Shown: positions 636 through 44,342 of the stretch, piece by piece
Position numbering within the stretch: position 1 is the stretch's first letter
Layout of the letters: each line of letters starts with the position of its first letter
Origin: a virus
IMG/VR virus record: IMGVR_UViG_3300044900_000004
Span: 1,103-65,102 of that record
DNA: 64,000 nt
Strand: one strand, 5' to 3'
Program-made: the position numbers and the translations under genes
The notes under the pieces: generated by a model
What the model was told of the DNA's origin: nothing
Databases searched by the model: none
What the model saw: the letters and a program-made list of their open reading frames with translations, nothing else

Positions 636-2048
636 TTAGGACATGCGATCGATGGTTCGATATTGAATGGCTTCGGCAACATGATGAGTTTGCAGATGTT
701 CATCATTGGAGAGATCAGCAATCGTTCTAGCGACTTTGAGAATGCGATCGCTAGCTCTTACAGACAGCCCTAATCTGCGAATTGCATTTTCGAGTAAACT
801 ACGAGTCGCGTCGTCGAGAATGCACCATTTCCTCAAATGAACGCTTTGCATTTCTGCATTACAGCGCAGTGGCGTATTTTGGAATCGCTGGTAGGCGCAG
901 TTGCGGGCAAGTTGAACGCGCGATCGTACCGTTGTTGAATCTTCCCCACTGGGCTGTTGGGTGATTTCTTCTGGCTTAAGGCGATTGACTCCGACTTGTA
1001 GATCGATTCTGTCCATCAAGGGCCCCGAAAGCTTTGCCCAATATTGCTCTCTGGCTCTCGGCGAACAGGTACAAGGCTGAATCGTGTCTGCATAATAGCC
1101 ACAAGGACAGGGATTGGTGCTGGCAACAAGTGTAAATCGGGCGGGAAATAGAACGGATTGACGAGTGCGAGAAATGGTAACATGACCATCTTCTAAAGGC
1201 TGGCGCAAAAACTCTAGAACGTCTCGCTTAAATTCCGTTAATTCGTCAAGAAATAGAACTCCTCTATGGGCGAGAGAAATTTCGCCAGGGCGCGGGTAAC
1301 TGCCTCCTCCGACGAGAGACGCTCCGGATGCTGAATGGTGAGGACTACGAAATGGGCGGACAGCAACCAGTGCGCCTTTTTCTTTGAGCAGACCTGCGAC
1401 AGAGTGAATTTGCGTGACTTCGAGCGCTTCCTCAAAGGAGAGGGGTGGCAGTATCGCGGGCAGTCGTCGGGCTAGCATGGTTTTTCCACTTCCGGGTGGG
1501 CCGACAAAGACGACGTTATGACCTCCGGCGGCAGCAATTTCTAGAGCGCGACGGGCGTGAGATTGTCCTTTGACATCCCGCAGATCGGGCGCGTCAATCT
1601 GCATCTGTAGCTCTTTTTCGGCATCGATTTGAACGGGGAGATAAGCAGCAGGATTGCCCAAAAACTGACCAATTTCTGATAGATGTTTGAATCCGTAAAC
1701 GTTGAGACCTTTGACGACGGCGGCTTCGCGAACATTATCAGACGGGACGACTAACCCTGAAAATCCAAGCTGTTTGGCGGCAGCAGCGATCGCCAGTACA
1801 CCCGCAACAGGCCTAAGGGAGCCGTCTAACGAAACTTCGCCTAAAAATAGATGAGTTTCTAATAGTTCGGCACTGACTTGCTCAGAGGCGGCCAAAATTC
1901 CAACACTAATCGGTAGATCAAAGCTCGGTCCTTCTTTGCGGAGGTCGGCTGGCGTGAGATTTACGACTATTTTCCGCATCGGGAACAGATAGCCCGCATT
2001 TCTGAGCGCTGTTTTGACTCGTTCTTTTGATTCTTGAACCACAGCATC
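636..2048 (-). pseudogene. comM: ComM/YifB Mg-chelatase-family AAA+ ATPase, 3' part only (5' end separated by prophage)
   Basis: GPPGSGKT, PFRSPHH, LFLDE, CPCG, DRID motifs; homology begins abruptly at DAVVQESKERVK with an in-frame stop a few codons upstream; the usual ~40-aa N-terminus is absent. Confidence 0.9.
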
Positions 2049-2063
2049 TTGTTTGCGGACTTG

Positions 2064-2408
2064 TTAAATTGCTGGCATCCGACTTCGATCGGCGGCATCA
2101 CAGCACATCGCAATTAGCAGCGGCATGATCGTTAAAATCCTTACCGCATCCTCCTCGTTAGAAATTAGTGATGCCAATTCAGGCGGCACTTCAAGGTGCG
2201 GTGCAAGCGCTGGCAAGTCTGCCGGAACGAGCCTGATCGGAGTGGAGTCAGGAAGCGATCGCACTGTCCCGTCTTCAACACACACTTCTTTAAGTTCGCG
2301 AAAAACCTCAATAATTGGCTCTTGTCCAACAGGAGAGGCGACCTGAAAGTTCCAGGTTCGCCGCTCTTTTGAAAATGTCTTTTGTGATTGTCCTAAGTCG
2401 ATCGCCAT
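2064..2408 (-). CDS. Hypothetical protein, last gene of the structural operon
   Basis: ATG at 2408 overlaps TAA of the upstream gene (TAATG); MAIDLGQSQK..., 114 aa. Confidence 0.65.
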   Translation of the reverse strand: MAIDLGQSQKTFSKERRTWNFQVASPVGQEPIIEVFRELKEVCVEDGTVRSLPDSTPIRLVPADLPALAPHLEVPPELASLISNEEDAVRILTIMPLLIAMCCDAADRSRMPAI

Positions 2409-3463
2409 TACAAACCAACCCCCACATATTGAAGATCTGCTTCGATCGTGCGGGCAGTTGTACCAGCCGTTTTCACGATCACAATACCTGCTCCAAGCAG
2501 GTTGTTTACGGGGATATTCGTCGTGATCGGACTTCCCGTAACAGCTACGCCGTCGATGAAAAATTCTACGCTTGTGCCCGCAGCATTGACCACGATCGCG
2601 AGGTTTTGCCATGCGTTAAAAGGGGCAAAAACGCCAGTTGTAACCGCCGTCTCAACTCCCGCATTTCTGACGACAATCTGCCAGTTGGCACTCGTGCCAC
2701 TCACATATCGGAAAAAGATCCCCGACGTGGTTTCGGTTACAGTTGTGGAGAGAAAGAATCCGGCCCGAACTAGATAAGTGTCCGTAGCGTCAGACGCGAC
2801 AGGAATACGCACACGGCACAAATAATCGCTCTCGCCCGACCCCATTTTTAGGCTAGCCAGCAAGGTTGTGCCATTAACCACGGTGGGCGCAGTAGCCAAG
2901 CCTGCTCTAGCTGTTGCCGATGTTCCTGTAGAAAGCTGTGCGATTCCTGGGGCGGACGTGTCCGTAATGGTCACAAAACTGACCGCAGCAGCAGTTCCGT
3001 TAACGATCGTATTCCATCCGCCAGCCCCCTCAATAAAATGCGAAAACAGTTCGCAGAGGGGGTTATCTCCTCTTAGTAACTGCATCTTGCCGCTTCTGTT
3101 GGGCAGTGTGTATGCGTGGTTCCCGGTCAGCGCTGCGGTAAAACTGGACGTGAAGCCATTATTTCGGATGCCCACGATCGGAGAAATAACGCTCCCCGCC
3201 CACAATGCTCCACCAACTCCCACACCTCCGGCTACAACAACCGCTCCCGTCGTAGTCGAAGTCGAAGGTGTAGTGCCACTTGCTGAGATTGTAGTTGCCC
3301 CGATCGCTCCTGCACTTGCAAGGTTTAGAAGGCTAGGGTCTAATACGCCATCGCTGCGAGTCGAGACCAGTTTATTCCCATCTGCAGCCCCGATTGATGC
3401 AGAAATCGCCTGCACCAATCGGGGAACCCCTGCCAGAATCGTAAGGAACTTGTTTGTGGCCAT
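2408..3463 (-). CDS. Putative head/tail fibre with C-terminal beta-sandwich (ConA-like) domain
   Basis: 351 aa, T/G/A/S-rich; WQNLAIVV...VEFFIDG motif; N-terminus shared with 3464..3976. Confidence 0.6.
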   Translation of the reverse strand: MATNKFLTILAGVPRLVQAISASIGAADGNKLVSTRSDGVLDPSLLNLASAGAIGATTISASGTTPSTSTTTGAVVVAGGVGVGGALWAGSVISPIVGIRNNGFTSSFTAALTGNHAYTLPNRSGKMQLLRGDNPLCELFSHFIEGAGGWNTIVNGTAAAVSFVTITDTSAPGIAQLSTGTSATARAGLATAPTVVNGTTLLASLKMGSGESDYLCRVRIPVASDATDTYLVRAGFFLSTTVTETTSGIFFRYVSGTSANWQIVVRNAGVETAVTTGVFAPFNAWQNLAIVVNAAGTSVEFFIDGVAVTGSPITTNIPVNNLLGAGIVIVKTAGTTARTIEADLQYVGVGL

Positions 3464-3976
3464 TTATGCATCCAGCGCGATCGGGGCATCGTATTCAAAT
3501 AGAATTCCAGTGGTGCTGACCGCATAGCCAAGTGTCTGATAGGTTTGACTTGCCGCGCTTGGAGGCGTTGCGGTGCTAGCGCCTGGGGTCGTCGCGCTAA
3601 GATATCGCCGCCCGATCGTCACGCCCGTTACAGCATTGTTCAAGCCGGAAATATAGACTGTCGCGTTGGCAGCGTTTGCCACATTTGCCAAGACAAAACC
3701 ATTCGCCTCGCGTCCATTGCTGGCATCAGCTTTACGCACATTGCGAGTGCCTGCGTTGTCGTAAATGTTCACGAAGTCGCCTGCTGTCAGCGCTTCAGAG
3801 GCGGCGATCGTTTCTGTCTGTGCGCCAATTCCAACGGGCATAAACGAGTTATCGATCCGCCCGTTTGCCCCGGTCGAGATCAACTTGTTTGCGTCAGATG
3901 CTCCAGTTGAGGCGACGATCGCCTGCACTAGTCGTTCAACTCCGTTGATAAGAGTCAAAAATTTGTTGGTTGTCAT
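3464..3976 (-). CDS. Putative capsid decoration/cement-like protein
   Basis: 170 aa, coupled to neighbours, downstream of capsid gene; ALTAGDFV...ANGFV pattern. Confidence 0.55.
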   Translation of the reverse strand: MTTNKFLTLINGVERLVQAIVASTGASDANKLISTGANGRIDNSFMPVGIGAQTETIAASEALTAGDFVNIYDNAGTRNVRKADASNGREANGFVLANVANAANATVYISGLNNAVTGVTIGRRYLSATTPGASTATPPSAASQTYQTLGYAVSTTGILFEYDAPIALDA

Positions 3977-5364: not shown

Positions 5365-5784
5365 TTAATGAACCTCTGGGCTTACAAAAGCGCCGTAGAT
5401 CAGCGATCCGGGTGTTCCGGTTTTGGTAGCCGTGACGCGCAGATATTTTGCGCCGGGAACAGCCTGCTCGATTTCGCCGCCTGAAAGCGCCATTTCAAGC
5501 GTCTTGGGAGTTGTTCCGTTCGGTTTCACGCTGTCGATGACGGTAAAAGCTCCGCCCAGCGTAAGGCCTGCTTCGACAGAGATTGTCCATTCTGCGGAGC
5601 CTGCAACGTATGCAGAAAAGGCAGTTGGGTAAACGATGACTTTGAAAACGTCGAACGCAACTGCGGTGAAAGCGATCGCAGTCTCGCTTGTGGTTGCCGC
5701 AACTGCAGAAGCAGTGCCGTCGCGCAGTTCCATTTGTTTGTCAAAGTGGAAGGCGCGACGATTAGGGAGAGTTGAAATAGGCAT
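5365..5784 (-). CDS. Putative minor capsid/decoration protein
   Basis: Start ATG 5784 (MPISTLPNRR) preceded by AGGAG; immediately after the capsid gene. Confidence 0.6.
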   Translation of the reverse strand: MPISTLPNRRAFHFDKQMELRDGTASAVAATTSETAIAFTAVAFDVFKVIVYPTAFSAYVAGSAEWTISVEAGLTLGGAFTVIDSVKPNGTTPKTLEMALSGGEIEQAVPGAKYLRVTATKTGTPGSLIYGAFVSPEVH

Positions 5785-5830
5785 AAGAACTCCTAAAGAG
5801 TGTGAAGTAGGGTGTGAAGCAAGAAGATTC

Positions 5831-6766
5831 TTACGCGACAACAGGTAAGTCTTTTACGCCGCGCAGACGAGCCACTGAGCGACCATGCTGCACAGCGATC
5901 GCCGTGTGCCAGTCGATACGGGTTCGCATACAGGGCTTGGTTTCCAGTTCCCCTAAGTCGCGAACACTGATGCCGTAGCCACCTTCGTTATTGCGGAAAT
6001 TCAGACCCTCAACCATGCCATCGTCAAAACTGACCACATAAATTGACGAGTTATTGGTTGTCGAGGCATCTTGAGACGCTTCGTCGAATCCCATAATTTC
6101 CAAATCGTTGTTGTCTTGCCATACAGGGATGATTGGAATTCCCTGGTAAGTCGTGATTCGCTTACCCATGCTTTCTGTGTTGAATTCCACAAAACCGCCA
6201 ACTGCGTTGTTCCGGGATGCTGCACTCATTCGACGCGCAATCGTCTTGTTCACAATGATGTGAGTGGGATTGTCTACTAGGTCGATCAACTCGTCCATCT
6301 TGCTAAGGCTGAGCGCCCCGCCTGCTGCTGCGATGTCGAGAAGCTGAGTCCCGCCAACACGCACCTGCAAACCATCAAAAGCGCGAGGCTCTTTGGATGA
6401 GTCGCCTTTGATGAAGTTACGCGTCCAAGCTAGAGCCTGCGCTTTTAGTTGCTGCTTTTCTTGAGTTTCGCGAACGCTCGGGCCCTGAGTAGCAATCATC
6501 GCCATATCGACATCGAGATCGCGACCGCACATCTTCATAGCCTCGGATTGCGGATTCATGATGCCGATCGACTGATCAAAGCCTTCGTTGTAGCCACGAA
6601 ACCCAACACCTGGGAGTGCGTGCTCTAGGTTGTAGCTGTAGGAATTGCCATCGACATTTTTGAAGCCGATCGCCATTAGAATCTCGGTAGTCGAGGCGTA
6701 TTGCTCGATATAAGCGCGGGTCAGGTCGTCGGCTGATTTGGCCGCTTCAATTAAAGTTAAGCCCAT
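5831..6766 (-). CDS. Major capsid protein
   Basis: 311 aa, MGLTLIEAAK...AFDGLQVR...YQGIPI; follows scaffold-like gene. Confidence 0.85.
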   Translation of the reverse strand: MGLTLIEAAKSADDLTRAYIEQYASTTEILMAIGFKNVDGNSYSYNLEHALPGVGFRGYNEGFDQSIGIMNPQSEAMKMCGRDLDVDMAMIATQGPSVRETQEKQQLKAQALAWTRNFIKGDSSKEPRAFDGLQVRVGGTQLLDIAAAGGALSLSKMDELIDLVDNPTHIIVNKTIARRMSAASRNNAVGGFVEFNTESMGKRITTYQGIPIIPVWQDNNDLEIMGFDEASQDASTTNNSSIYVVSFDDGMVEGLNFRNNEGGYGISVRDLGELETKPCMRTRIDWHTAIAVQHGRSVARLRGVKDLPVVA

Positions 6767-6875
6767 GTGAGTTCAAAGATGAGAGGGGTGTGCTAGTCCG
6801 TTGGCATCCCGCCTCCGGTCTTGGAGATAAAGATTTGGCTTACTGGCATCCCGCCTGAAGCTTATTGCCTCTGGT

Positions 6876-6883
6876 GTTCCCAC
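6876..6883 (-). promoter_or_regulatory. GTRGGAAY motif upstream of capsid gene
   Basis: GTGGGAAC directly after a terminator hairpin. Confidence 0.55.
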
Positions 6884-6885
6884 AC

Positions 6886-6909
6886 AAAAAAGGAGTGAAA
6901 TTTCACTCC
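6886..6909 (-). terminator. Intrinsic terminator after scaffold gene
   Basis: GGAGTGAAA/TTTCACTCC inverted repeat followed by T6 on minus strand. Confidence 0.65.
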
Positions 6910-6933
6910 CTACAACATCATGAAAATTGAGAA

Positions 6934-7725
6934 TTAACCTCGTGCGCGAATAGCCCGAACTCGTTCAGCAAATGGCAGGCTACTAAGATCTTGATTTGCC
7001 CCAAACTGTTTAGCGCTCTGCTGCATCCCGCCTCCCTTGGCGTTGTTCTTGGGCGCGAAACAGTGGCCTAAGACTGGATGCTCTGACAATTCTTCCATGA
7101 ACTCGATCGCGCTCATGGGTTTGCTGGCATCCTTCTTGGAGAAACGCCGAACTCCATTAGCATCCAGAACTTCAAGCTCACCCTTTTCGTTGATTCGCAG
7201 GTGGCGATCGGCATGGGCATTAATGCTATCGAAGAACGACACGCCATCTTCCCCAGCTTCCATGCGCCCGTTCGTAGCCGCAAAATACTTCTCAACCTGA
7301 GTACGTTTTTGCAGTGATGTGAATTTCTTCTCCCACTCCTGAGCCTTCACCTGCTCTTTCTGAATTTGAGCGGTAAACTCGGTTTCAAGCGTTTGTTTGA
7401 GTTGTGCTTCACGCTGGTTAAACTTCTCAGCTTCCTGTTGCAACGCCTCAAATTGCTGATATTTCTCAGGGTCAATACCCTTGAATGAGTCCTTGAGAGA
7501 TGCGAACTGTTTTTCGAGATCCTTGGCTCGATCGCGCTCCTTCTGCAACGCACTCTTTAACCCAGACACGTCTTCCGTTGGTAGTTCGGGGGGTGTTACT
7601 TGAGTGTTGCCGCCTGCTCCGTCATCTTCTTGAAAGGTGATTTGAGGCGCAAAACGCTTGAGAGAAACAGACTCGATCGAATGTCCGTAGCCAGATGAAT
7701 AAAGATTGAATTTCATTGTGGGCAT
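6934..7725 (-). CDS. Capsid scaffolding protein
   Basis: Coiled-coil LKSALQKERDRAKDLEKQ; C-terminal GGG; sits upstream of capsid gene. Confidence 0.8.
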   Translation of the reverse strand: MPTMKFNLYSSGYGHSIESVSLKRFAPQITFQEDDGAGGNTQVTPPELPTEDVSGLKSALQKERDRAKDLEKQFASLKDSFKGIDPEKYQQFEALQQEAEKFNQREAQLKQTLETEFTAQIQKEQVKAQEWEKKFTSLQKRTQVEKYFAATNGRMEAGEDGVSFFDSINAHADRHLRINEKGELEVLDANGVRRFSKKDASKPMSAIEFMEELSEHPVLGHCFAPKNNAKGGGMQQSAKQFGANQDLSSLPFAERVRAIRARG

Positions 7726-20681: not shown

Positions 20682-21677
20682 ATGGCAACTATTTTCAAAT
20701 ACAACGGTGTTCAATATCTCAGCATCAAAGACGCTTGCCAGCAATTAGGGAAAAATTATGCGGCTGTCCTAAAACGCCTTCAAGCTAACTGGACTGTGGC
20801 ACAAGCGTTTGACGACGAACCTCGCCCACCCCGACACCCCCTCTCACTCAATGGGGTTACTTACAATGGGGTCGGCGAAGCGGTTCGACTCCTAAACGCT
20901 CCTGTGAGTCGCCGCACTGCTATGCGGCGAATGGAAGCAGGAATGACCCTGGAGGAAAGTTTATTCACGCCTCTTACCCTTGCTCACAGCAATGGAGTTG
21001 TTTATTCGATCACCAATCTCGTCAATGGCAAGCAATATATCGGTATAACCACCACGTCACTGGAAGAGCGATGGCAAAGCCATCTAGACACTCCTCTCAA
21101 AAAAAGACACCTGCTCCATCAATCGATCACTGAATTTGGCAAAGAGAACTTCGCGATCGAGGTTCTCGAACGTGCTTCTAGCCTGAAAGAGCTTCGCGTC
21201 AAAGAGCAAGAGTGGATTCAGAAGTTAAACACAAGGCAGCCAAATGGCTACAACATCACCAAAGGCGGTGAAATGGGCGGATCTGCGGGCAAGCCTACTA
21301 TACTCCCTGGAGATCCAACGCTCTACCCAACTGTTCGGGCTGCGGCGAAAGCGTTGGCTCAAAGGGAAGGAATTAATGAAGCTGCTGCCGAGAGGAGAAT
21401 TTATGTAGAGCGAATTGAGGTTAAGAAACCTCATGGAATGTCAAAAAGCAAAATTTATCGGTATTGGGATAATTTGATCAATTCCACAACCAACCCTCGA
21501 TCGAGGGGCTACAACGGTTCTACACTCTGCGATCGCTGGAGGGATTTTAGGAACTTTCATGAGGATATGGGTGAGCAATACCAGGAGGGTATGATCCTTC
21601 GATTAAAGGACTCTACTAAGCCTTACTCTAAAGACAATTGCTCTTGGGTCTGGCGCTACGGAAAGAGCATTGTCTAA
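20682..21677 (+). CDS. GIY-YIG homing endonuclease with degenerate HNH-like C-terminus
   Basis: GVVYSITNLVNGKQYIGIT...RW..H...E..WI...GYN. Confidence 0.8.
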   Translation: MATIFKYNGVQYLSIKDACQQLGKNYAAVLKRLQANWTVAQAFDDEPRPPRHPLSLNGVTYNGVGEAVRLLNAPVSRRTAMRRMEAGMTLEESLFTPLTLAHSNGVVYSITNLVNGKQYIGITTTSLEERWQSHLDTPLKKRHLLHQSITEFGKENFAIEVLERASSLKELRVKEQEWIQKLNTRQPNGYNITKGGEMGGSAGKPTILPGDPTLYPTVRAAAKALAQREGINEAAAERRIYVERIEVKKPHGMSKSKIYRYWDNLINSTTNPRSRGYNGSTLCDRWRDFRNFHEDMGEQYQEGMILRLKDSTKPYSKDNCSWVWRYGKSIV

Positions 21678-35701: not shown

Positions 35702-36643
35702 TTACGACTTCTTCTCAAAATCATTGCAAGTCTCACCCTCAAACCCGTAGGGATGCATCGCGCAAATCATTAGGTTGCCGCCATCTACCTTGCCGTGAAC
35801 GTTGCGACAGCCCTGGCACAACTTCGGCACGTCGGGATGAAAGGGTGAAGTAAAGTCAACCAGAGGGAGGCGATCGTAGAAGCGATCGTAAGACCTCATT
35901 ATCAGGTCTTGTCGTGATTGCTCAAGAAGCTGCGATCGTAGTCGGCTCGAATGATATTCATCCGCCACATATATTCTGATTGTGTCGAGAGTCTCTGAAC
36001 CGAGACCCTCTCGCCTTCGCTCTTGCTCAACACGATCGACGTTCAGATCAACCGTTACTAGGCAAAGATCATTTGCCGGAGAATGGACGTTGTATCCGTA
36101 AACTTTCAGAAACAAGCCGTCTATTAATACTCCTCCCTCAACAAACCTCATGCTCCTATGAGCATGGAATCTGATTGAGCAGGTTGCTTCGGACATCCTC
36201 CATTCGAGGATTGAAATTGACCGATGACTCTGACCCTGGCTCACCACCGCGCTCACCGCTGAATTGCTGCGTTGGATTTCCCAAACTTGCTGATACTCAG
36301 CCTCGACTCGCTCTAAAAATTCGGCTCGCTCGTGGTCAACTCGACCTATCCAAGGCTCTAACCAGCTATTTTCTTGACTGACAATCCTTGCAGAAAAATT
36401 GCATCCCGGCTCAAAGCGTCTTACCTCGAAGAAGTGGCGATCGTGAATCCATTGCTCCCCATCCACGAAAGTACTGGTGAGTTGGCGACCGATCTGCCCA
36501 CCGCGATCGTAGTATTCATCCACCGTTCTGCCTGGTGTGCGCGTAGTGCGAAGTGCCAGGCACCCGTTCTCCCAGTGATGTTCAGTTACTTGCGGTTCTA
36601 CGTCCGTCATCACTAACCTCTCGCTATGGAAACCTGGAACCAT
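35702..36643 (-). CDS. Hypothetical protein with C-terminal Cys-rich motif
   Basis: CQGC...ICAMHPYG....CNDF. Confidence 0.55.
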   Translation of the reverse strand: MVPGFHSERLVMTDVEPQVTEHHWENGCLALRTTRTPGRTVDEYYDRGGQIGRQLTSTFVDGEQWIHDRHFFEVRRFEPGCNFSARIVSQENSWLEPWIGRVDHERAEFLERVEAEYQQVWEIQRSNSAVSAVVSQGQSHRSISILEWRMSEATCSIRFHAHRSMRFVEGGVLIDGLFLKVYGYNVHSPANDLCLVTVDLNVDRVEQERRREGLGSETLDTIRIYVADEYHSSRLRSQLLEQSRQDLIMRSYDRFYDRLPLVDFTSPFHPDVPKLCQGCRNVHGKVDGGNLMICAMHPYGFEGETCNDFEKKS

Positions 36644-37023
36644 CCAGTAATTTTAGTGCCCTGAGCCTGCTCTTCTAGCGCCCCTATACCTTGCCGTCCA
36701 TGCGGGGGATTGATCGGCGTATCGAGATAGAAGTAGCCCTTTATTCCACTCCACACACATTCTGCCCAGTTGTTCGGCAGAATCCGGCGATCGAGGATTG
36801 CTGGACTCACGCAATACCCCTCTAGCCTAAGAGCGGTTTCGTCTACGCCTGGCTGTTTAAGCACTTTACTTGCTGATTGCAAAGCCAGCATCTCTAGAAT
36901 TGCAGTCAACTTAATCGACTTGGTTTCCGCCACTGCATTCCCCACTTCATCGCGAATCAGATTCCCGGTTGGAATCTGAAATGTTAGCCTTGCGTTCTCA
37001 AAATTACTGTAGGGACTGATCAT
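36613..37023 (-). CDS. Putative head-closure protein
   Basis: GNLIRDEVGN pattern; position after adaptor. Confidence 0.55.
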   Translation of the reverse strand: MISPYSNFENARLTFQIPTGNLIRDEVGNAVAETKSIKLTAILEMLALQSASKVLKQPGVDETALRLEGYCVSPAILDRRILPNNWAECVWSGIKGYFYLDTPINPPHGRQGIGALEEQAQGTKITGWFQVSIARG

Positions 37024-37635: not shown

Positions 37636-38091
37636 CTAGCTTCTGCCCAGACTCGCGCATCCGTCGATCGGAGGTACAGGCGGTAGTTTGAGGAAATAGC
37701 GCAGCCGATCGATTAACTCGTTCCTCTGCATCTCCATGCCGGCCGTTCTCGATTCCTGATTCCATTTGAGCTTGCTGGCTTCTACTAATGCAAAGTTGGG
37801 GCTACTGCGTTCCTGCTTGAGCCGATCGGCAAGTTCATCTAGTTCGTCCAAGATCTCAATCACCCCCCGAACTGAGAACTCAGGCGTGATTTTGTCCATA
37901 CGATCGCTGATGTCCTCCTGTTCAAACAGTCGAGGGATCGGCATGTTGGCATAGTATTCGGACGGGTTCAGTTGAGCATCGTAGGTATAGAACTCTTTCT
38001 GAGACTGAGTTGCAAGATAAGGGAGAGATTTGATCAGTGCAAAGTTGAGATGATTGATAGCGCGATAGTGATCTTCAAGACTGAAAGGCAT
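37636..38091 (-). CDS. Putative head-tail adaptor
   Basis: Start MPFSLEDH; ends ...LGRS; position in connector cluster. Confidence 0.55.
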   Translation of the reverse strand: MPFSLEDHYRAINHLNFALIKSLPYLATQSQKEFYTYDAQLNPSEYYANMPIPRLFEQEDISDRMDKITPEFSVRGVIEILDELDELADRLKQERSSPNFALVEASKLKWNQESRTAGMEMQRNELIDRLRYFLKLPPVPPIDGCASLGRS

Positions 38092-38119
38092 GACGCGAGG
38101 AATGAGGGATGAGTCCAGC

Positions 38120-38127
38120 ATTCCTAC
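38120..38127 (-). promoter_or_regulatory. GTRGGAAY motif
   Basis: GTAGGAAT, 28 nt before ATG 38091, after hairpin + T6. Confidence 0.6.
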
Positions 38128-38288
38128 AACAAAAAACCGCCAGGAACGCGACTGACGGCAGGAAAGGAGAGCTATTAAGAATTCCGATAAGACTTCGCAT
38201 ATTACATGCTGTTAGTGGAACGTGGTTTTTTCGGAATGGTAGCGTAAACGGATGTATTTTTCTTAGAAGTCTCAGTAGCAAACTAGTT

Positions 38289-38924
38289 ATGCGTAGTTTA
38301 GGTGTATCTTTTGTTAGTCGTTCTTTTGCAACATTTGCTCTAGTAATTTGTTTCTACAGTTTCTTCATCTCCCCCGAAACCGCAATCAAGACTCAAGCTT
38401 TTTACTGGTTTTGTGGCGCACTTGTGTCAGCGGTAATTCCATATCTAAAGGAAGTAGCAGCATATGTGCGAAGCATCAAACTTGGTGATATTGAAATTGC
38501 TTTGAATGAAGTTAAACATGAAATTCAAAGAGTTGATAACAAGGTAGAAAAGTTAGACAACAAGTTGTTAGCATCGCTGGGTCAAGTTCGTCAAAGTGAA
38601 GCAGCATTGACAAGAGAAGCTCGTGAAAATCGGCAGAGAATTTATGATGAATCTGCTCAAGCTCTTGCATTGCTGCCTCCTGAAAGCAAGATAAACTTAC
38701 AGAAGCGTCTTACACTAAACCATCTTAATGATGCCGGTATTGACGTGCAAACCCTCAAGGGTGTGTTCAAAGATCTTGGTTACTATCAAGGGTCAATCGA
38801 TCAGTTTTTTAATCCTGAGTTGGTGAAATCAATTGAGAGGTTTCAAGCTGAAAAAATACCAGGACAACCTGATGGCATAGTTGGTCCAATTACGCTTTCC
38901 AAGATCGCGGAGCTTCACTCTTAA
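38289..38924 (+). CDS. 2-TM + coiled-coil + peptidoglycan-binding domain protein (cassette-like)
   Basis: LGYYQGSIDQFF...AIERFQ....PDGIVGPIT pattern; AT-rich; ATG embedded in GTTATGC. Confidence 0.75.
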   Translation: MRSLGVSFVSRSFATFALVICFYSFFISPETAIKTQAFYWFCGALVSAVIPYLKEVAAYVRSIKLGDIEIALNEVKHEIQRVDNKVEKLDNKLLASLGQVRQSEAALTREARENRQRIYDESAQALALLPPESKINLQKRLTLNHLNDAGIDVQTLKGVFKDLGYYQGSIDQFFNPELVKSIERFQAEKIPGQPDGIVGPITLSKIAELHS

Positions 38925-38970
38925 GAGCCGTGAAAAAGTTAATCGGCTATTTTTCAGGAGTTGCTGAGCA

Positions 38971-39028
38971 GTCGAACAACCCGGTTGGAGCGGATTGGCA
39001 GTGCAACCGCTCAACCGGAACGTTAGAC
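38971..39028 (+). other. Integron attC-like recombination site (58 bp)
   Basis: GTCGAAC ... CCGGTTGGAGCGG / CCGCTCAACCGG (one extra G) ... GTTAGAC. Confidence 0.65.
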
Positions 39029-39151
39029 CGCTCATCCCTTAGTGGTGGCAGTTCTGGTAACTTTCTAGGTTAGTGTTGGGATTAACTTGAAAACACTTGA
39101 GAGAGTTGAGAGTCTAAGTTTTCAGTGACAATTTAGCTAAGTGAGGCTGAT

Positions 39152-39382
39152 ATGGAGTATCAACGAGTCCGCAAATCTTCCTCCTGGAATCCTCTAAGCC
39201 AGGAAAAAAGCTCTCAGTTTGCTCCGCGCCCCTTTGCTGTTCAAGCACAACAGGATTCTCGTAGACCTCCCACTCAAAAAGAAATAGAGAACGAAGCTCA
39301 GCGGATGGAACGGGCGAAAGCACAGCCGGGCGATCGCTCTAGTCTTGCTGAGTTCAAATTGCGGTTCGATCGACAGCTCTAA
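39152..39382 (+). pseudogene. Probable 5' fragment of a cyanobacterial secreted-effector (DUF4157-type) gene
   Basis: MEYQRVRKSSSWNP..EKSSQFAPRPFAVQAQQDS.RPPTQ.EIENEA recalled as such an N-terminus; diverges after ~50 aa. Confidence 0.45.
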
Positions 39383-39401
39383 ATGTAGTTTTATAACTGA
39401 T

Positions 39402-40025
39402 TCATTCTATTGCCGTTAGCGTTCTCCCAATTCGGGCAAAAACGATTCGACACTTACAGCGATTTTGACAGCTACAGTTTGTGCCCACTGGGATGATGTC
39501 AGCGATCGCCGTCCATTCCAACCTCTGATAATCAATACACTCTGAGCAGTGCCGCGCGCCTGCGTCCAAAATTCGCTTGCCAGCATTGAAGCCTTCCTCA
39601 ATGCGAGAAATCTGCTCTGCTCTTGAGAAAGTGATTTTGACTGATTCGGCATACAGACCGCTGCGCCTAATCGCCTGCGTGGGGGTAACTTTGCCTGCAT
39701 ACAGGTCGCGGGCAAAGTTATCAAGATACTCGAATTGCTTACGAAGTTGGGAACCGATCGCCCCATAGTGTCTAGGCGTGAGTTGCTCCTTTCCCCCCGA
39801 ACTGAGCATTGCCATCTGCAGGTGTGAGGTTTTGATCGTCTCAGCCATGCGAATTTGCCACTCTGCCAGATGAATCTTGCCTTGAGTGAGCAAACGAGTG
39901 TGCGCTTTCAATCGTGCCTCTGAGCGCCCAATTTCTTGGTTGAGCAAGCGAGTGATCTCAGGGCGGGGGACGAACTGCCCTTTGTCGTTGCGGTATTGGC
40001 TGGCGCGGCGATCGTACGTGACCAT
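39402..40025 (-). CDS. Minor capsid / head morphogenesis protein
   Basis: RILDAGARHCSEC...C.CQNRCKCRI. Confidence 0.7.
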   Translation of the reverse strand: MVTYDRRASQYRNDKGQFVPRPEITRLLNQEIGRSEARLKAHTRLLTQGKIHLAEWQIRMAETIKTSHLQMAMLSSGGKEQLTPRHYGAIGSQLRKQFEYLDNFARDLYAGKVTPTQAIRRSGLYAESVKITFSRAEQISRIEEGFNAGKRILDAGARHCSECIDYQRLEWTAIADIIPVGTNCSCQNRCKCRIVFARIGRTLTAIE

Positions 40026-40955: not shown

Positions 40956-41603
40956 ATGGCTAGAAGAATTATAGTTGAGCCAGGAGACAGGTTTGAAGCC
41001 TTGGTGGTTGTAGAAGAACTTCCGGTGCAAAGGTATCCAAACGGAGCCAAGTATCGTTCTTTTAGGCTTGCCTGCGATTGTGGCTCTGAAGTCAGAGCAA
41101 TCTTAGGGCATTTGAGATCTGGACACACTTCGTCTTGTGGATGCAGCAGAAGAGCCTACTATCAGTCTGTTATGCCTGAGTATCGCGTTTGGCAGCAGAT
41201 GAAGCAAAGATGCGGGAATCCAAGGTGCCGAGCATACTCTAGGTATGGCGGCAGAGGGATTAAGGTTTGCGATGCCTGGAAGAATTCATTTGAAGCTTTT
41301 ATCTCGGATATGGGTTTGCGTCCATCTGACGGGCACACCATAGACAGAATTGACGTGAACGGAGATTACGAGCCGAGCAATTGCCGATGGGCTACTCGGC
41401 AAGAGCAGATGCACAACATAAGGACTAATCGAGAGGTTGAGTTTAGGGGTGTTAAAAAATGCATTGGCGCATGGGCAAGGCACTTCAGCAAACACCCTTC
41501 AACTCTGTACAAGACTAAGACAAGCGAGGGTGTTTGTAAGATCTTAGAGCGATGGGCGGCCCTAAGAGATTGTGAGAATCAGGAGGCTTTTTTCAAAAAA
41601 TGA
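40956..41603 (+). CDS. HNH homing endonuclease
   Basis: CDCG...SCGC, RYGGRGIKVC, TIDRIDVNGDYEPSNCRWAT. Confidence 0.85.
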   Translation: MARRIIVEPGDRFEALVVVEELPVQRYPNGAKYRSFRLACDCGSEVRAILGHLRSGHTSSCGCSRRAYYQSVMPEYRVWQQMKQRCGNPRCRAYSRYGGRGIKVCDAWKNSFEAFISDMGLRPSDGHTIDRIDVNGDYEPSNCRWATRQEQMHNIRTNREVEFRGVKKCIGAWARHFSKHPSTLYKTKTSEGVCKILERWAALRDCENQEAFFKK

Positions 41604-42094
41604 GCCCAAAATGATCCGTCGCTCATACAGGTGCGGCGGATTAGTTCGTTCGAGTAATGCAACCCTTTGCCCCTGCAATCGTTAGCATCATCATTCCTGT
41701 CGTATCCCCACTCATTCCACTCGCCATAAGGGTCATGTACCCAGAAGCCATTGTCATCAGCCCCAGTCACGGCGATGATGTGGCCACTTGAAGTGAAAAA
41801 TCCGGCAATGATCGCTGGATTAGTTTTGACCCATTCCTTCACCTCGGCGATCGTTGCATTCGATTTGAACTCATCATTCACGCCGTAGGCTTCGGCCACT
41901 CTGGCCAGATCGTGGGGACTGTGGCGGTCTAGTCCATGCTCTTCGCAATAATCATCTAATTCGTCAGGGAACCGCCGCTCAGTTCGGGGGGAAACACCCA
42001 AATACAGCAAGCACATTGCCAGGCTTGAAACGTTGCAGCTTCCGAATGGATTGTCTGCATTCGATAGCTGATCAAAATAAGGAACGTTGAGCAT
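41579..42094 (-). CDS. C39-like peptidase, candidate endolysin
   Basis: LNVPYFDQ...SCNVSSLAM...GHII...VHDPYG (Cys-His-Asp). Confidence 0.8.
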   Translation of the reverse strand: MLNVPYFDQLSNADNPFGSCNVSSLAMCLLYLGVSPRTERRFPDELDDYCEEHGLDRHSPHDLARVAEAYGVNDEFKSNATIAEVKEWVKTNPAIIAGFFTSSGHIIAVTGADDNGFWVHDPYGEWNEWGYDRNDDANDCRGKGLHYSNELIRRTCMSDGSFWAHFLKKAS

Positions 42095-42123
42095 CAGGAG
42101 TCCAAAAATGACTATGCCTGAAT

Positions 42124-42131
42124 ATTCCTAC
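42124..42131 (-). promoter_or_regulatory. GTRGGAAY motif
   Basis: GTAGGAAT, 29 nt before ATG 42094. Confidence 0.6.
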
Positions 42132-42349
42132 GTTTGGCTTTGAGAAAAGGCTTGAGAGAGGGATGAGCCAACTGGATGGCTCGATCGATGTCCACTTGAG
42201 TGATTTTCGGCTTAGAAGCGGCAACTGAAATCGGTGAACCGATTGGCTTGAACAGCGGTTCGGGGGGAGTCATGATCTAGAAGTCAACAGACGGCAGATT
42301 ACGATCGTCCTGAAGTTGTCGGAAAAACCGACAACTTCAAATTGAGTCA

Positions 42350-42577
42350 TTACTTACGCTTGAGCAGGGAGAACGATCGACAGAGCAGCACCGGAATCCA
42401 CGCAAAGCCGAGAAATGCAAAAGTGAATACAAAAAACAGACTGACCAAGATCACCGCATCGTCACCACGATCTTCTGCCATGTCGATCGCTATCTCGCTG
42501 ATATCAACGTTTTGAACATAGTCATTGCAGGTAAATATCCATCCACCCAGATAGCAAACCCAAAGAGCTGTAAGCAT
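42350..42577 (-). CDS. Small 2-TM protein (holin candidate)
   Basis: CYLGGWIF...WIPVLLCR; paralog of 42618..42800. Confidence 0.55.
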   Translation of the reverse strand: MLTALWVCYLGGWIFTCNDYVQNVDISEIAIDMAEDRGDDAVILVSLFFVFTFAFLGFAWIPVLLCRSFSLLKRK

Positions 42578-42617
42578 TTGCAGTTAATTTTTAGCTTTCA
42601 GCGTAAGGGTTCCCGCG

Positions 42618-42800
42618 TCATGATCTAGAGGTCAACAGACGGCAGAGTACGATCGGAACCCAGTAAAAAAACAGAATGGCAAACATCATTCCGATAAGTA
42701 GGCTGGAACAAATGCCGTCGTCTGGCTCACTGACGGTCTCAGCAAAGTCCACGCAAATGAATATCCACCCAATCAGGTAGCAAGCAACGATCGTCGTCAT
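42618..42800 (-). CDS. Small 2-TM protein (holin candidate)
   Basis: CYLIGWIF...WVPIVLCR. Confidence 0.55.
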   Translation of the reverse strand: MTTIVACYLIGWIFICVDFAETVSEPDDGICSSLLIGMMFAILFFYWVPIVLCRLLTSRS

Positions 42801-42931
42801 CTTCGGGTTCGGTTAATTCGTGAGTTGTGGCCCTCTAGCCATACCGAAAAGCCCAGCACGAAGACGCAGGCGGCAACGTTGGCAAAAAAGGCAAGCAGCA
42901 TAAAAGCGAAGGGATTAGGGCAGTTCATCAT
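42797..42931 (-). CDS. 44-aa single-TM protein
   Basis: MMNCPNPFAFMLLAFFANVAACVFVLGFSVWL...; stop overlaps ATG 42800. Confidence 0.4.
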   Translation of the reverse strand: MMNCPNPFAFMLLAFFANVAACVFVLGFSVWLEGHNSRINRTRR

Positions 42932-44342
42932 TTGGTTCTGTGTTCTGAGTTCCTACGAGATCTACATTCTGCTCAATTTCCTCAAGCTTCGTGTCAGCAG
43001 GGAGCCAGCGACGCGCTAAGAGCATTTGTAAGCCAAGAGCCTGGGGAATTTGAACGCCCATTGCATCCAAAATGATTTGGATTTCTTGCGGGGTTGCTGG
43101 GATTTGCAGAATCGATTCGTTTACGTCCAAGCTGCCAGTGGCTGGTTCACGGGTGAACGCTGCCCAGAACCTGAAGATCTGCTGTGAGCAAGATTCTTTG
43201 CGGGTAGCCATACCCTTGAGAGTTGCCTGCGTTTGAGCAGTGTCCAGAACCACCTCGGTTGCCGTTTTCGCTGTCTCGCTGCCAGAGAGAAACGCTAGCG
43301 TCACGCGATCCATCGATCGCTCTAGCTTTTCAATATCTGCCTGCGTCAATGCCATGCCGCTGCCCGAAGGTTCGGCAAAAGAGAAATCGCCTGTTTCTGG
43401 GACATCGACAACCGAATTTGGACCAATCACCAGACGCGGCATGATCGGCGGCTGCCCTGGGACAGTTGGGGCGATCGCTTTTGCACCTTTCCGCACAGGC
43501 ACAGGCATATTGATCTTGTACTGGATTTCGTTGAAGCTCGATCGCTTCTGCAGATGCTCAATGTTCAGCCTCGCTAAATTCATGAATGGCGGCTGACCCT
43601 GGAACAATTTAGATTCTGAAATGCTGTACCAAACGATCGGCACTTCACTCAGGCTCGTCTTCCCCTCATCCACCAGCCGCTTAACGTAGCCCTGCTTCGT
43701 GTGAATCAGTTCGTAAACCTCAAAGGAGCCAGGGCGCAACACGCGATAGAGAGTCTGCTGTTTGGTGCCAAATTCGCCATCGTCAACCTCCTCGATCGTG
43801 CGAATCACCACGCGATTGATAAACTGTTTGCCGCCTCGGTGAGTCGTGCTCCAGTTGAGAATGTCGCGCCGATCGATGAGCACCAAATAGGGCCGTCTTC
43901 CCGATTCGAGTAAGTCCCGATTGGTGAGGATTTCAGGATCTTCAGGTGGATACTCCACCAAAATTCCGCACCCACCGTCACGCATCACCAGCTCATCAGC
44001 TTCGGTGAAGAACGTCACTAGATCATTACCCTGTCCGTCGATGTCTTTTTCAGAAAGTACGATCGACGCTGGGACTTCATCCGTGAGCGTAAACTCACTC
44101 AGCAAACCCGCATGACCTTTGAGCGCAGGGGTGAATCGGTTGTCGAAGTGGGCGCGATCGAGCCTGTTTTTATAAGCTTTTTCTGGCTCTGCCTGCTCTT
44201 TGGGGAGATATTGTTTTTTGCAGTTTTTGAGGTCGTTCCAGACATTCCACACCAAATCAAGTTCATCCTGCACCTCTAGAAGGTTTGGGTGCAGGAAGCT
44301 GGGGAGGGTGTTGTCTGTGGTGGGAATTGCAGCGGTTCTCAT
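42915..44342 (-). CDS. Portal protein (DUF4055-like)
   Basis: 475 aa; YLPKEQAE...YKNRL; LARLNIEH; AKTATE. Confidence 0.85.
   Translation of the reverse strand: MRTAAIPTTDNTLPSFLHPNLLEVQDELDLVWNVWNDLKNCKKQYLPKEQAEPEKAYKNRLDRAHFDNRFTPALKGHAGLLSEFTLTDEVPASIVLSEKDIDGQGNDLVTFFTEADELVMRDGGCGILVEYPPEDPEILTNRDLLESGRRPYLVLIDRRDILNWSTTHRGGKQFINRVVIRTIEEVDDGEFGTKQQTLYRVLRPGSFEVYELIHTKQGYVKRLVDEGKTSLSEVPIVWYSISESKLFQGQPPFMNLARLNIEHLQKRSSFNEIQYKINMPVPVRKGAKAIAPTVPGQPPIMPRLVIGPNSVVDVPETGDFSFAEPSGSGMALTQADIEKLERSMDRVTLAFLSGSETAKTATEVVLDTAQTQATLKGMATRKESCSQQIFRFWAAFTREPATGSLDVNESILQIPATPQEIQIILDAMGVQIPQALGLQMLLARRWLPADTKLEEIEQNVDLVGTQNTEPNDELP
42949..42956 (-). promoter_or_regulatory. GTRGGAAY motif inside the portal 3' end
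   Basis: GTAGGAAC, 17-20 nt before the small membrane-gene cluster. Confidence 0.45.

Follow-up and report, generated by a model that had tools for sequence, protein, structure and literature searches.

A divergent gene and a palindrome between late phage genes

The window analysed here, a stretch of 64,000 nucleotides, spans bases 1103-65102 of a 73.7-kb provirus record in IMG/VR whose estimated completeness is 82%. The host of the provirus is a filamentous cyanobacterium; HIP1 octamers occur in the window together with a truncated ComM-like host gene at one end, and this ComM flank shows 76-82% identity at best to genomes of the order around Thermoleptolyngbya. Besides the genes given below, the record encodes a 3060-aa protein and other phage genes. 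The features relevant to this study are as follows:

5831-6766, phage gene, major head protein
6934-7725, phage gene, scaffold protein
37636-38121, minus strand, phage late gene from the ORF list, 161 aa, left of the insert
38121-38160, minus strand, phage-native, terminator-like junction: GC hairpin with T-run (38159-38136), then a motif of the GTRGGAAY type immediately ahead of the next gene start
38161-38203, no strand, left junction zone between the phage junction motif and the cassette leader
38204-38288, plus strand, retained 3' part of a cassette 5' leader (97.8% identical to metagenome contig L086 from 38213, 84% to L002 from 38206)
38289-38924, plus strand, cassette gene, 211 aa, PG_binding_1 (PF01471, E 5e-8), TAA at 38922-38924
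38925-38970, plus strand, 46-nt spacer in which the RNA fold shows a small hairpin and, behind it, a T-run, conserved in L086
38971-39028, plus strand, attC site, 58-bp imperfect palindrome (covariance model R1, L-box covariation, homology to L086)
39029-39128, plus strand, leader of a second, different cassette (73% identity to G017:C24, from GTTAGAC)
39152-39382, plus strand, 76-aa ORF, its first ~49 codons being the 5' end of an eCIS_core (DUF4157) gene, the rest unrelated
39299-39401, no strand, right junction zone between the eCIS_core fragment and the phrog_24776 gene
39402-40025, minus strand, phage late gene phrog_24776 (PHROG E 8e-56), right of the insert
42915-44342, phage gene, portal

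The 161-aa gene to the left gave no match in Pfam and PHROG searches and lies on the same strand as the portal-proximal module. The hairpin, T-run and motif of 38121-38160 recur at four other gene junctions of the phage, at about 35.6, 44.35, 30.88 and 6.88 kb; the phage junction motif thus indicates that phage DNA extends to at least 38160, which sets the left limit of the insert. The cassette gene lies on the plus strand among minus-strand phage genes and is antisense to the direction of phage late transcription; its GC content is 38-41% versus about 50% in the flanks. A reading of the sequence alone (hereafter the sequence-only reading) had described the palindrome as lying 46 nt past an AT-rich, opposite-strand gene, and this distance is indeed found between the stop codon and the site, which has the same strand as the ORF.

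Anatomy of the attC site

The 58-bp imperfect palindrome was located exactly where it had been placed, and the R''-like GTCGAAC, the L boxes differing by one G and the R' box GTTAGAC can all be read in the sequence. Its elements on the plus strand are:

38971-38977, R'' GTCGAAC
38978-38982, R''-L'' spacer AACCC
38983-38989, L'' GGTTGGA, with the extra G
38990-38993, GCGG
38994-39006, terminal structure, 13-nt centre
39007-39010, CCGC
39011-39016, L' TCAACC
39017-39021, L'-R' spacer GGAAC
39022-39028, R' GTTAGAC

Judged by the usual attC features (R'' RYYYAAC complementary to R' GTTRRRY, total length about 57-141 bp), R' matches the consensus, and R'' agrees with it at 6/7 positions and forms 6/7 pairs with R'; the deviation from RYYYAAC falls on position 4, where R'' and R' also mispair. 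The R'' box reads GTCTAAC in a 98%-identical array copy (see below), and GTCGAAC is likewise found in an array site of G002:C113. Comparison of GGTTGGA with TCAACC leaves one surplus G in the 5' arm, a bulged column that is nearly invariant across the family, and a second unpaired base, A38994, is positioned 6 bp further in than the extra G of L'', the same spacing between unpaired bases as in aadA7-type sites. The central spacer (AAC versus AAC) is unpaired in the folds of both strands and in the family consensus, and the tip is formed by a 3-bp stem with a 6-nt loop. Folded as single-stranded DNA, the site reached -20.7 kcal/mol for the top and -22.8 kcal/mol for the bottom strand, corresponding to z values of -4.2 and -5.4 relative to shuffled sequences, with 0/200 shuffles folding as well.

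In attC sites, which IntI recombines as a folded bottom strand, the additional L'' base turns extrahelical and confers polarity. The extrahelical base on the bottom strand would be a C in the window site, versus the usual G; in VCR assays, a G-to-C change of the first extrahelical base had a 1.2- to 2.7-fold effect, and shortening of the attC loop was tolerated in VCR and aadA7 assays (PMC2727003). Since the site retains every feature that matters in these assays, it may plausibly be regarded as a putative IntI substrate in a cell expressing IntI. It cannot release a cassette alone, because the 73.7-kb record contains no second attC (R1, E <= 1) and no PF00589 match was obtained when IntI or another tyrosine recombinase was sought in it. 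The record accordingly harbors neither a complete integron, with intI and attI beside cassettes, nor a CALIN, defined by at least two clustered attC sites.

A structured repeat family and its covariance model

When the 90 bases surrounding the palindrome were searched in the genomes of the homologues, matches to the two arms appeared in pairs with differing middles. The family follows the plan xxxTAAC, AACCC, 7-nt L'' and GCGG on the 5' side, then 40-43 variable bases, and CCGC, 6-nt L', GGAAC and GTTRGNN (mostly GTTAGCC or GTTAGAC) on the 3' side. Variation is confined to the central part, which comprises 13 nt in the window versus 40-43 nt in the other members, each of which is 85-88 nt long. 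In an alignment of 11 sequences with a 22-pair structure, 88% of the cells pair, a share that drops to 16-39% if the 3' partners are slid. Changes of both partners were seen in eight pairs, of which seven belong to the L-box helix (helix 2), as exemplified by GGTTGGA/TCAACC, TGGTGCA/TGACCA and TGCTGGA/TCAGCA. One 5'-arm base is unpaired in all family sites.

Model R1 was built from 10 array-borne sites of other cyanobacterial genomes, with the window excluded. Applied to the window, it returned 38971-39028 (plus strand) as the sole significant match (65.9 bits, E 4.6e-17), with 17.4 bits for the minus strand of the same segment and 12.7 bits for the next-best match in the 64 kb; on the whole 73.7-kb record the window attC was again the only match. 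A positive control on 50 kb of plasmid R100 likewise gave one significant match (29.8 bits, E 2e-6), which is the 60-bp aadA1 attC between aadA1 and qacEdelta1, aligned end to end and in the orientation of the gene. Alignment to the aadA1 attC also bears out the earlier remark on the R''-L'' stretch, which exceeds the canonical length by one base. We conclude that 38971-39028 is a true attC site.

Pattern scans of IMG/VR brought up four other contigs with attC-like sites scored by R1 (L073, L074, L106, L095); L073 and L074 have a high GC content, L106 carries two attC-like sites and L095 one degenerate site. None of the four showed cyanobacterial traits, and HIP1 is absent from L106 and L095.

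Integron arrays and integrases in cyanobacterial genomes

In the cyanobacterial genomes, R1 detected 8-38 sites per genome, many of them in same-strand arrays, such as the five attC sites on the minus strand of G004:C67, spaced 0.7-1.3 kb apart, and the further arrays on G004:C74 and G002:C16. Integrases were identified with the NCBIfam profile TIGR02249 (integron integrase, cut-off 265 bits). Among the first five genomes, three gave scores of 440-485 bits, and the cut-off was exceeded in 25 of the 57 genomes from the order around Thermoleptolyngbya versus 0 of 14 control genomes. Loci with intI and attC side by side are:

G004:C13, intI 168021-168956 (minus), attC 169394-169479 (plus)
G004:C66, intI 1255-2193 (minus), attCs at 3301 and 7988 (plus)
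G002:C75, intI 41794-42732 (plus), attC 36748-36834 (minus)
G048:C6, intI 3038-3976 (plus), attCs 1706-1793 (minus) and 846-932 (minus)

The classical geometry is seen at these loci, with the intI genes adjoining the arrays and facing away from them. Attachment sites of the family stand in same-strand arrays adjoining intI in G002, G004, G048 and the Microcystis genome G005, and not in the provirus. The attC family of the window is integron-borne, and integrons that share one uniform type of attC occur commonly across this order of filamentous cyanobacteria.

The cassette gene and its product

The 211-aa protein begins with two hydrophobic helices, continues with long coiled-coil helices spanning about 90 residues and ends in a PG_binding_1 domain. 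Its AF2 model is all-helical (pLDDT 69.6), and neither the structure model nor the protein atlas added anything on function beyond Pfam. Judging from this predicted architecture, the product is probably an envelope-anchored wall-binding protein. No sigma-70-like promoter was predicted upstream of the gene.

We found 26 homologues of the 211-aa protein, with 55-95% identity, in Leptolyngbya-like cyanobacteria (Leptolyngbya, Thermoleptolyngbya, Elainellaceae, Oculatella) and Microcystis. Compared with six reference genomes, the window shares the ORF only, the neighbourhoods being all different. In G048:C6, the homologue (972-1591, minus strand) lies exactly between two attCs and about 1.4 kb from intI. 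Further homologues have attC neighbours as well, upstream in L005 (55 bits) and downstream in L004 (28 bits) and L087 (38 bits); a simple alignment of the sequences downstream of the homologues showed no hairpin, whereas R1 reveals attCs there at several loci. The gene at 38289-38924 is an integron cassette gene, and its homologue in G048:C6 is part of a complete integron.

An array-borne twin and the boundaries of the cassette

Metagenome contig L086 (1192 bp) carries a copy of the cassette that is 97.8% identical to that of the window. This copy is flanked by two attCs, one upstream of it (67-153, 69 bits) and, at its end, its own site of 87 nt (987-1073, 79 bits). Window positions 38213-39001 align with L086 229-1017 and positions 39002-39024 with L086 1047-1069, such that the window attC equals the 87-nt site of L086 minus 29 central nucleotides. 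Between the two ORFs there are 5 synonymous and 6 non-synonymous differences (dN/dS 0.34, with too few changes for this ratio to carry weight). The segment 38925-39001, comprising the 46-nt spacer and the 31 nt at the 5' end of attC, is identical to L086 at 73 of 77 bases. As far as the GTT of R' (39024), identity between window and L086 amounts to 98-100%, while the sequences beyond are unrelated (AGAC... versus GGGC...). By sequence comparison, this break in homology is the signature of cassette shuffling at the canonical G|TT crossover.

The hairpin's position 3' of a gene and its stability would also fit an ordinary terminator or regulatory hairpin that happens to resemble attC, and Rfam, which holds no attC model, returned no match to the palindrome at the gathering score and only sub-threshold miRNA-hairpin noise. 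We nevertheless regard the probability of this explanation as practically negligible: there is no T-run past the stem, the match is strand-specific and directed to a structured repeat family arrayed beside integron integrases, the same model R1 recovers the aadA1 attC, and the homology to the array twin breaks at G|TT.

The cassette is intact at its 3' end, while its 5' leader is shorter than in a complete cassette (G|TT at both ends, TTRRRY ... attC-G). In L086, 75 bases separate the upstream attC from position 229, and some 70-75 leader nucleotides are absent from the window; what lies left of about 38204 gave no significant alignment to the L086 leader (local score 17 versus a shuffle mean of 20). 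Two short motifs that had been suspected to be crossover-related did not hold up. The GTTATGC at the ATG, proposed to be core-like, is a start-codon context only, since the homologues have CCATGCGT, TTATGCGT or TCATGCGA at this position and the cassette boundary in array copies lies 95-151 nt upstream of the ATG. Likewise, the GTTAGTG at 38211, considered as a core remnant, reads TATAGTG in L086, so its GTT is not a crossover relic, and homology begins a few bases further left.

Sequence to the right of the attC

Beyond the attC, the window continues with the leader of a second, different cassette. The matching stretch in G017:C24 likewise starts at GTTAGAC, and the first ~24 nt of this leader are found directly after attCs in G056 and G027; L086 has a different sequence at this position. 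The adjoining segment 39128-39298 shows 83% and 78% DNA identity to gene starts in G019 and G042, where the genes are longer than 548 aa and carry PF13699 (eCIS_core/DUF4157). Because the match is to the 5' ends of long genes, the 76-aa ORF represents a gene fragment fused to unrelated sequence; a protein search with this ORF in five genomes gave no match, and the relatives were found by DNA search. The right junction zone (39299-39401) had no match in the 57 genomes of the order.

Origin of the fragment

We put at roughly 87% the probability that about 38204-39300, which lies antisense in the late module of the provirus, is a piece of the chromosomal integron cassette array of a Leptolyngbya-like (Oculatellaceae-type) cyanobacterium. 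This reading is carried by three findings: the site belongs to the attC family, the cassette has a twin within an array, and phage DNA flanks the fragment on either side. Situated downstream of the phrog_24776 coding sequence, in its 3' untranslated part, between its stop codon and its native terminator, the fragment consists of three parts: a cassette lacking about 70 nt of its 5' leader, with an intact ORF for a predicted membrane-anchored peptidoglycan-binding protein; an attC shortened by a 29-nt deletion of the terminal loop; and the start of the next cassette. Retained in the shortened attC are the R box and the L box, the latter including the extrahelical base, as well as the unpaired spacer and a short hairpin at the tip. 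The sequence-only reading had proposed that the phage captured part of a host attC array, and a 5'-truncated cassette, an attC and the leader of a different cassette do stand between phage sequences. That interpretation is supported by our analysis and was largely right: the covariance model, here our own with the window excluded, finds the site, related repeats occur in arrays of cyanobacterial genomes, and TIGR02249 integrases lie beside those arrays, which leaves none of the three observations it had named as contrary to it.

How the fragment entered the phage genome may be judged from its ends. Neither of them lies at a G|TT crossover point, and the left end lacks about 70 nt of the cassette leader, which favors illegitimate recombination, that is, a 'moron'-type insertion, as the probable mode of entry rather than a clean IntI event. 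An alternative scenario is that IntI placed one or more cassettes into a secondary, GTT-type site of the phage and that the 5' leader and the second attC were later lost by deletion. Integrons are known to place cassettes at secondary sites (as cited in PMC4889954), a GTT is present near the left junction (38211-38213), and integron integrases are common in this cyanobacterial order. We nonetheless hold this scenario to be quite improbable: some 70 nt of leader present in the array copy are missing at the left end, the GTTAGTG is TATAGTG in that copy and hence no crossover relic, and the right end has, instead of an attC, a gene fragment and unassigned DNA. With the leader missing and no attC at the right end, at least two extra deletions would have to be invoked.

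A joining of host DNA to phage DNA by mis-assembly, or an over-generous provirus call, has to be considered as well, as attC repeats are a known cause of broken or confused assemblies, many array contigs in our data end at or near attCs, and the record is an IMG/VR 'provirus' with an estimated completeness of 82%. The junctions, however, lie in unique sequence away from the repeated attC, the phage regulatory sequence at 38121-38160 is only about 45 nt from the left end of the fragment, a phage gene (from 39402) begins at most about 100 nt from its right end, both flanks have the same orientation, and the insert is small (1.1-1.2 kb). The flanking phage genes moreover form one module in a related prophage. 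In this prophage (G032:C201), a 54%-identical phrog_24776 homologue comes after the portal, a homologue of 36613-37023 follows about 430 nt past it, and the cassette is absent between them. The gene order of the window's phage module agrees with that in G032, whose prophage is, at 54% identity of the phrog_24776 protein, our best comparator and thus no empty-site comparison at high identity. More closely related phages were not among the sequences searched: the phrog_24776 protein had no relatives in IMG/VR and JGI metagenomes, and portal relatives reach 26-30% identity only. On balance, an artefact of assembly or provirus delimitation appears very improbable.

Under the preferred reading of a captured array fragment, the attC in the prophage would be a stranded relic, as the record offers it neither a partner site nor an integrase, and the cassette gene, if expressed, would add an envelope protein to the lysogen. 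The SOS response induces the integron integrase in other bacteria, and prophages as well. It is conceivable, though in our estimate unlikely, that the phage-borne attC is still active and would recombine with chromosomal attI or attC upon IntI induction. If this were true, the phage genome could co-integrate into an integron or swap cassettes, and the cyanophage would be a working shuttle of cassettes between cyanobacterial strains, beyond a relic carrier. Because intI is found in 25 of the 57 genomes, a phage with such an attC would often meet compatible integrases. Phage-mediated cassette traffic, as suggested in the sequence-only reading, remains an inference, the record having a single attC and no IntI or other tyrosine recombinase.

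Relation to known systems

Integron cassettes constitute a large pool of accessory genes, and their movement between cells is only partly understood. Phages with integron parts were first catalogued in 2023, mostly from proteobacterial hosts; complete integrons, In0 elements and CALINs were described in phage genomes, and some of the cassettes from the host's sedentary array are present in Vibrio anguillarum prophages (Qi et al. 2023, PMC9892861). Our case resembles these in that a fragment of a chromosomal cassette array with attC lies inside a phage or prophage genome. It differs in its host, a filamentous cyanobacterium, as that survey names no cyanobacterial host (PMC9892861), in having a single attC where the CALIN definition calls for two or more, and in its position inside a late structural module, with both ends truncated and no integrase.

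Chromosomal integrons of cyanobacteria have been reported (Cury 2016, PMC4889954; Boucher 2007, as cited in PMC2426708), and a Cyanobacteria-type attC model is available (Ghaly 2021, PMC8352920). The window site shares with the cyanobacterial integrons, found in Leptolyngbya-like genomes and Microcystis, the attC architecture of sites that have TIGR02249 neighbours; unlike the array sites it measures 58 bp versus 85-88 bp, owing to the 29-nt loop deletion, and lies outside an array in a provirus. With the aadA1 attC of the class 1 integron (R100/Tn21), which at 60 bp has about the same length, it shares the order R'', spacer, L'' with extra base, loop, L', spacer and R' GTTAGAY. The extra L'' base on the top strand is C in aadA1 and G in the window, the R''-L'' stretch is one base longer in the window, and the L-box sequences are unrelated.

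A lone cassette with attC outside an integron is also what insertions at secondary sites produce (Recchia & Hall 1995; Francia et al., both as cited in PMC4889954); such insertions are precise at G|TT on both sides, in contrast to the truncated 5' leader and the partial second cassette past the attC in the window. The position of the cassette gene invites a further comparison, namely with the extra genes inserted between the late genes of phages.

These phage 'morons' have in common with our case an opposite-strand, compositionally deviant gene, here between a late gene and its terminator. Unlike for morons, the donor is identifiable as an integron array, and a recombination site arrived with the gene.

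A literature search joining cyanophage and integron returned nothing relevant. Phage-borne integron parts and cyanobacterial integrons are both published; what is new is the case in a cyanobacterial provirus. It adds a well-documented example in which the type of donor can be named through a 98% array twin that breaks at the crossover point, and its anatomy shows where in the phage the captured piece sits, past a late gene and ahead of that gene's terminator.

In a search of the phage collection, the HNH gene at 40956-41603 was the sole match; it is a similar insertion near the cassette fragment.

Structure of the cyanobacterial attC type

The extra L'' base of the cyanobacterial attC family is a G on the coding (top) strand (38983–38989 in the window; column 17 of the family alignment A2), so that the extrahelical base on the bottom strand is a C. 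This is the reverse of the aadA1 site, the class 1 integron attC of plasmid R100, where the extra base is a top-strand C and a bottom-strand G. Directly 3' of R', a motif of ~25 nt, roughly GCTyAtCCCTTAGTGGGGGCAGT, is common to several cassettes of different genomes, located at 39029–39052 in the window and right after the R' sites of four further loci (L081, L083, L021 and L082). Its first bases pair with '...GCA' upstream of R'', thereby lengthening the R-box stem, which suggests that conservation in this attC type may extend as a unit beyond the limits of the canonical site.

Phage surroundings of the cassette

The first ~49 codons of a 76-aa ORF (39152–39382) represent the start of an eCIS_core (DUF4157) protein gene, full-length relatives of which (G019:C622 and G042:C20, from two cyanobacterial genomes) exceed 548 aa; the rest of the ORF is unrelated. 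A phage junction unit recurs on the minus strand, consisting of a GC hairpin, a T-run and then a GTRGGAAY-type motif that closely precedes the start of the following gene. This unit and three likely further add-on genes of the late region map as follows:

38121–38160, ~35600, ~44350, ~30880 and ~6880, minus strand: phage junction unit
40956–41603, plus strand: HNH endonuclease
20682–21677, plus strand: GIY-YIG endonuclease
41579–42094, minus strand: C39-like peptidase

None of these three genes was found between the portal and phrog_24776 genes of the related prophage in genome G032. There, the scaffold and major head genes abut the portal gene divergently, whereas in the window they (within 5365–7725) lie 36 kb away from it (42915–44342), and the genomes are thus arranged differently; locus L063 was included in this comparison.

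Related sites and possibly decaying copies elsewhere

A copy of the PG-binding gene in a Thermoleptolyngbya MAG contig (JAYUYI010000214.1) is 84% identical, contains an in-frame TAA and has a partially duplicated leader; no attC was found on either side of it, and this copy may be a stranded cassette in decay. On the Microcystis sp. BLCC-F210 chromosome (~2411800–2415550), a partial integron-integrase match (116 bits, model positions 11–105) adjoins two attC sites, in what looks like a decayed integron. With covariance model R1, built from array-borne cyanobacterial sites, attC-like sites scoring 34–39 bits were also obtained in three non-cyanobacterial IMG/VR viral contigs (L073, 3300037478_000195; L074, 3300048597_000056; L106, 3300022682_000042), the last of which is a possible CALIN because it carries two such sites in tandem.
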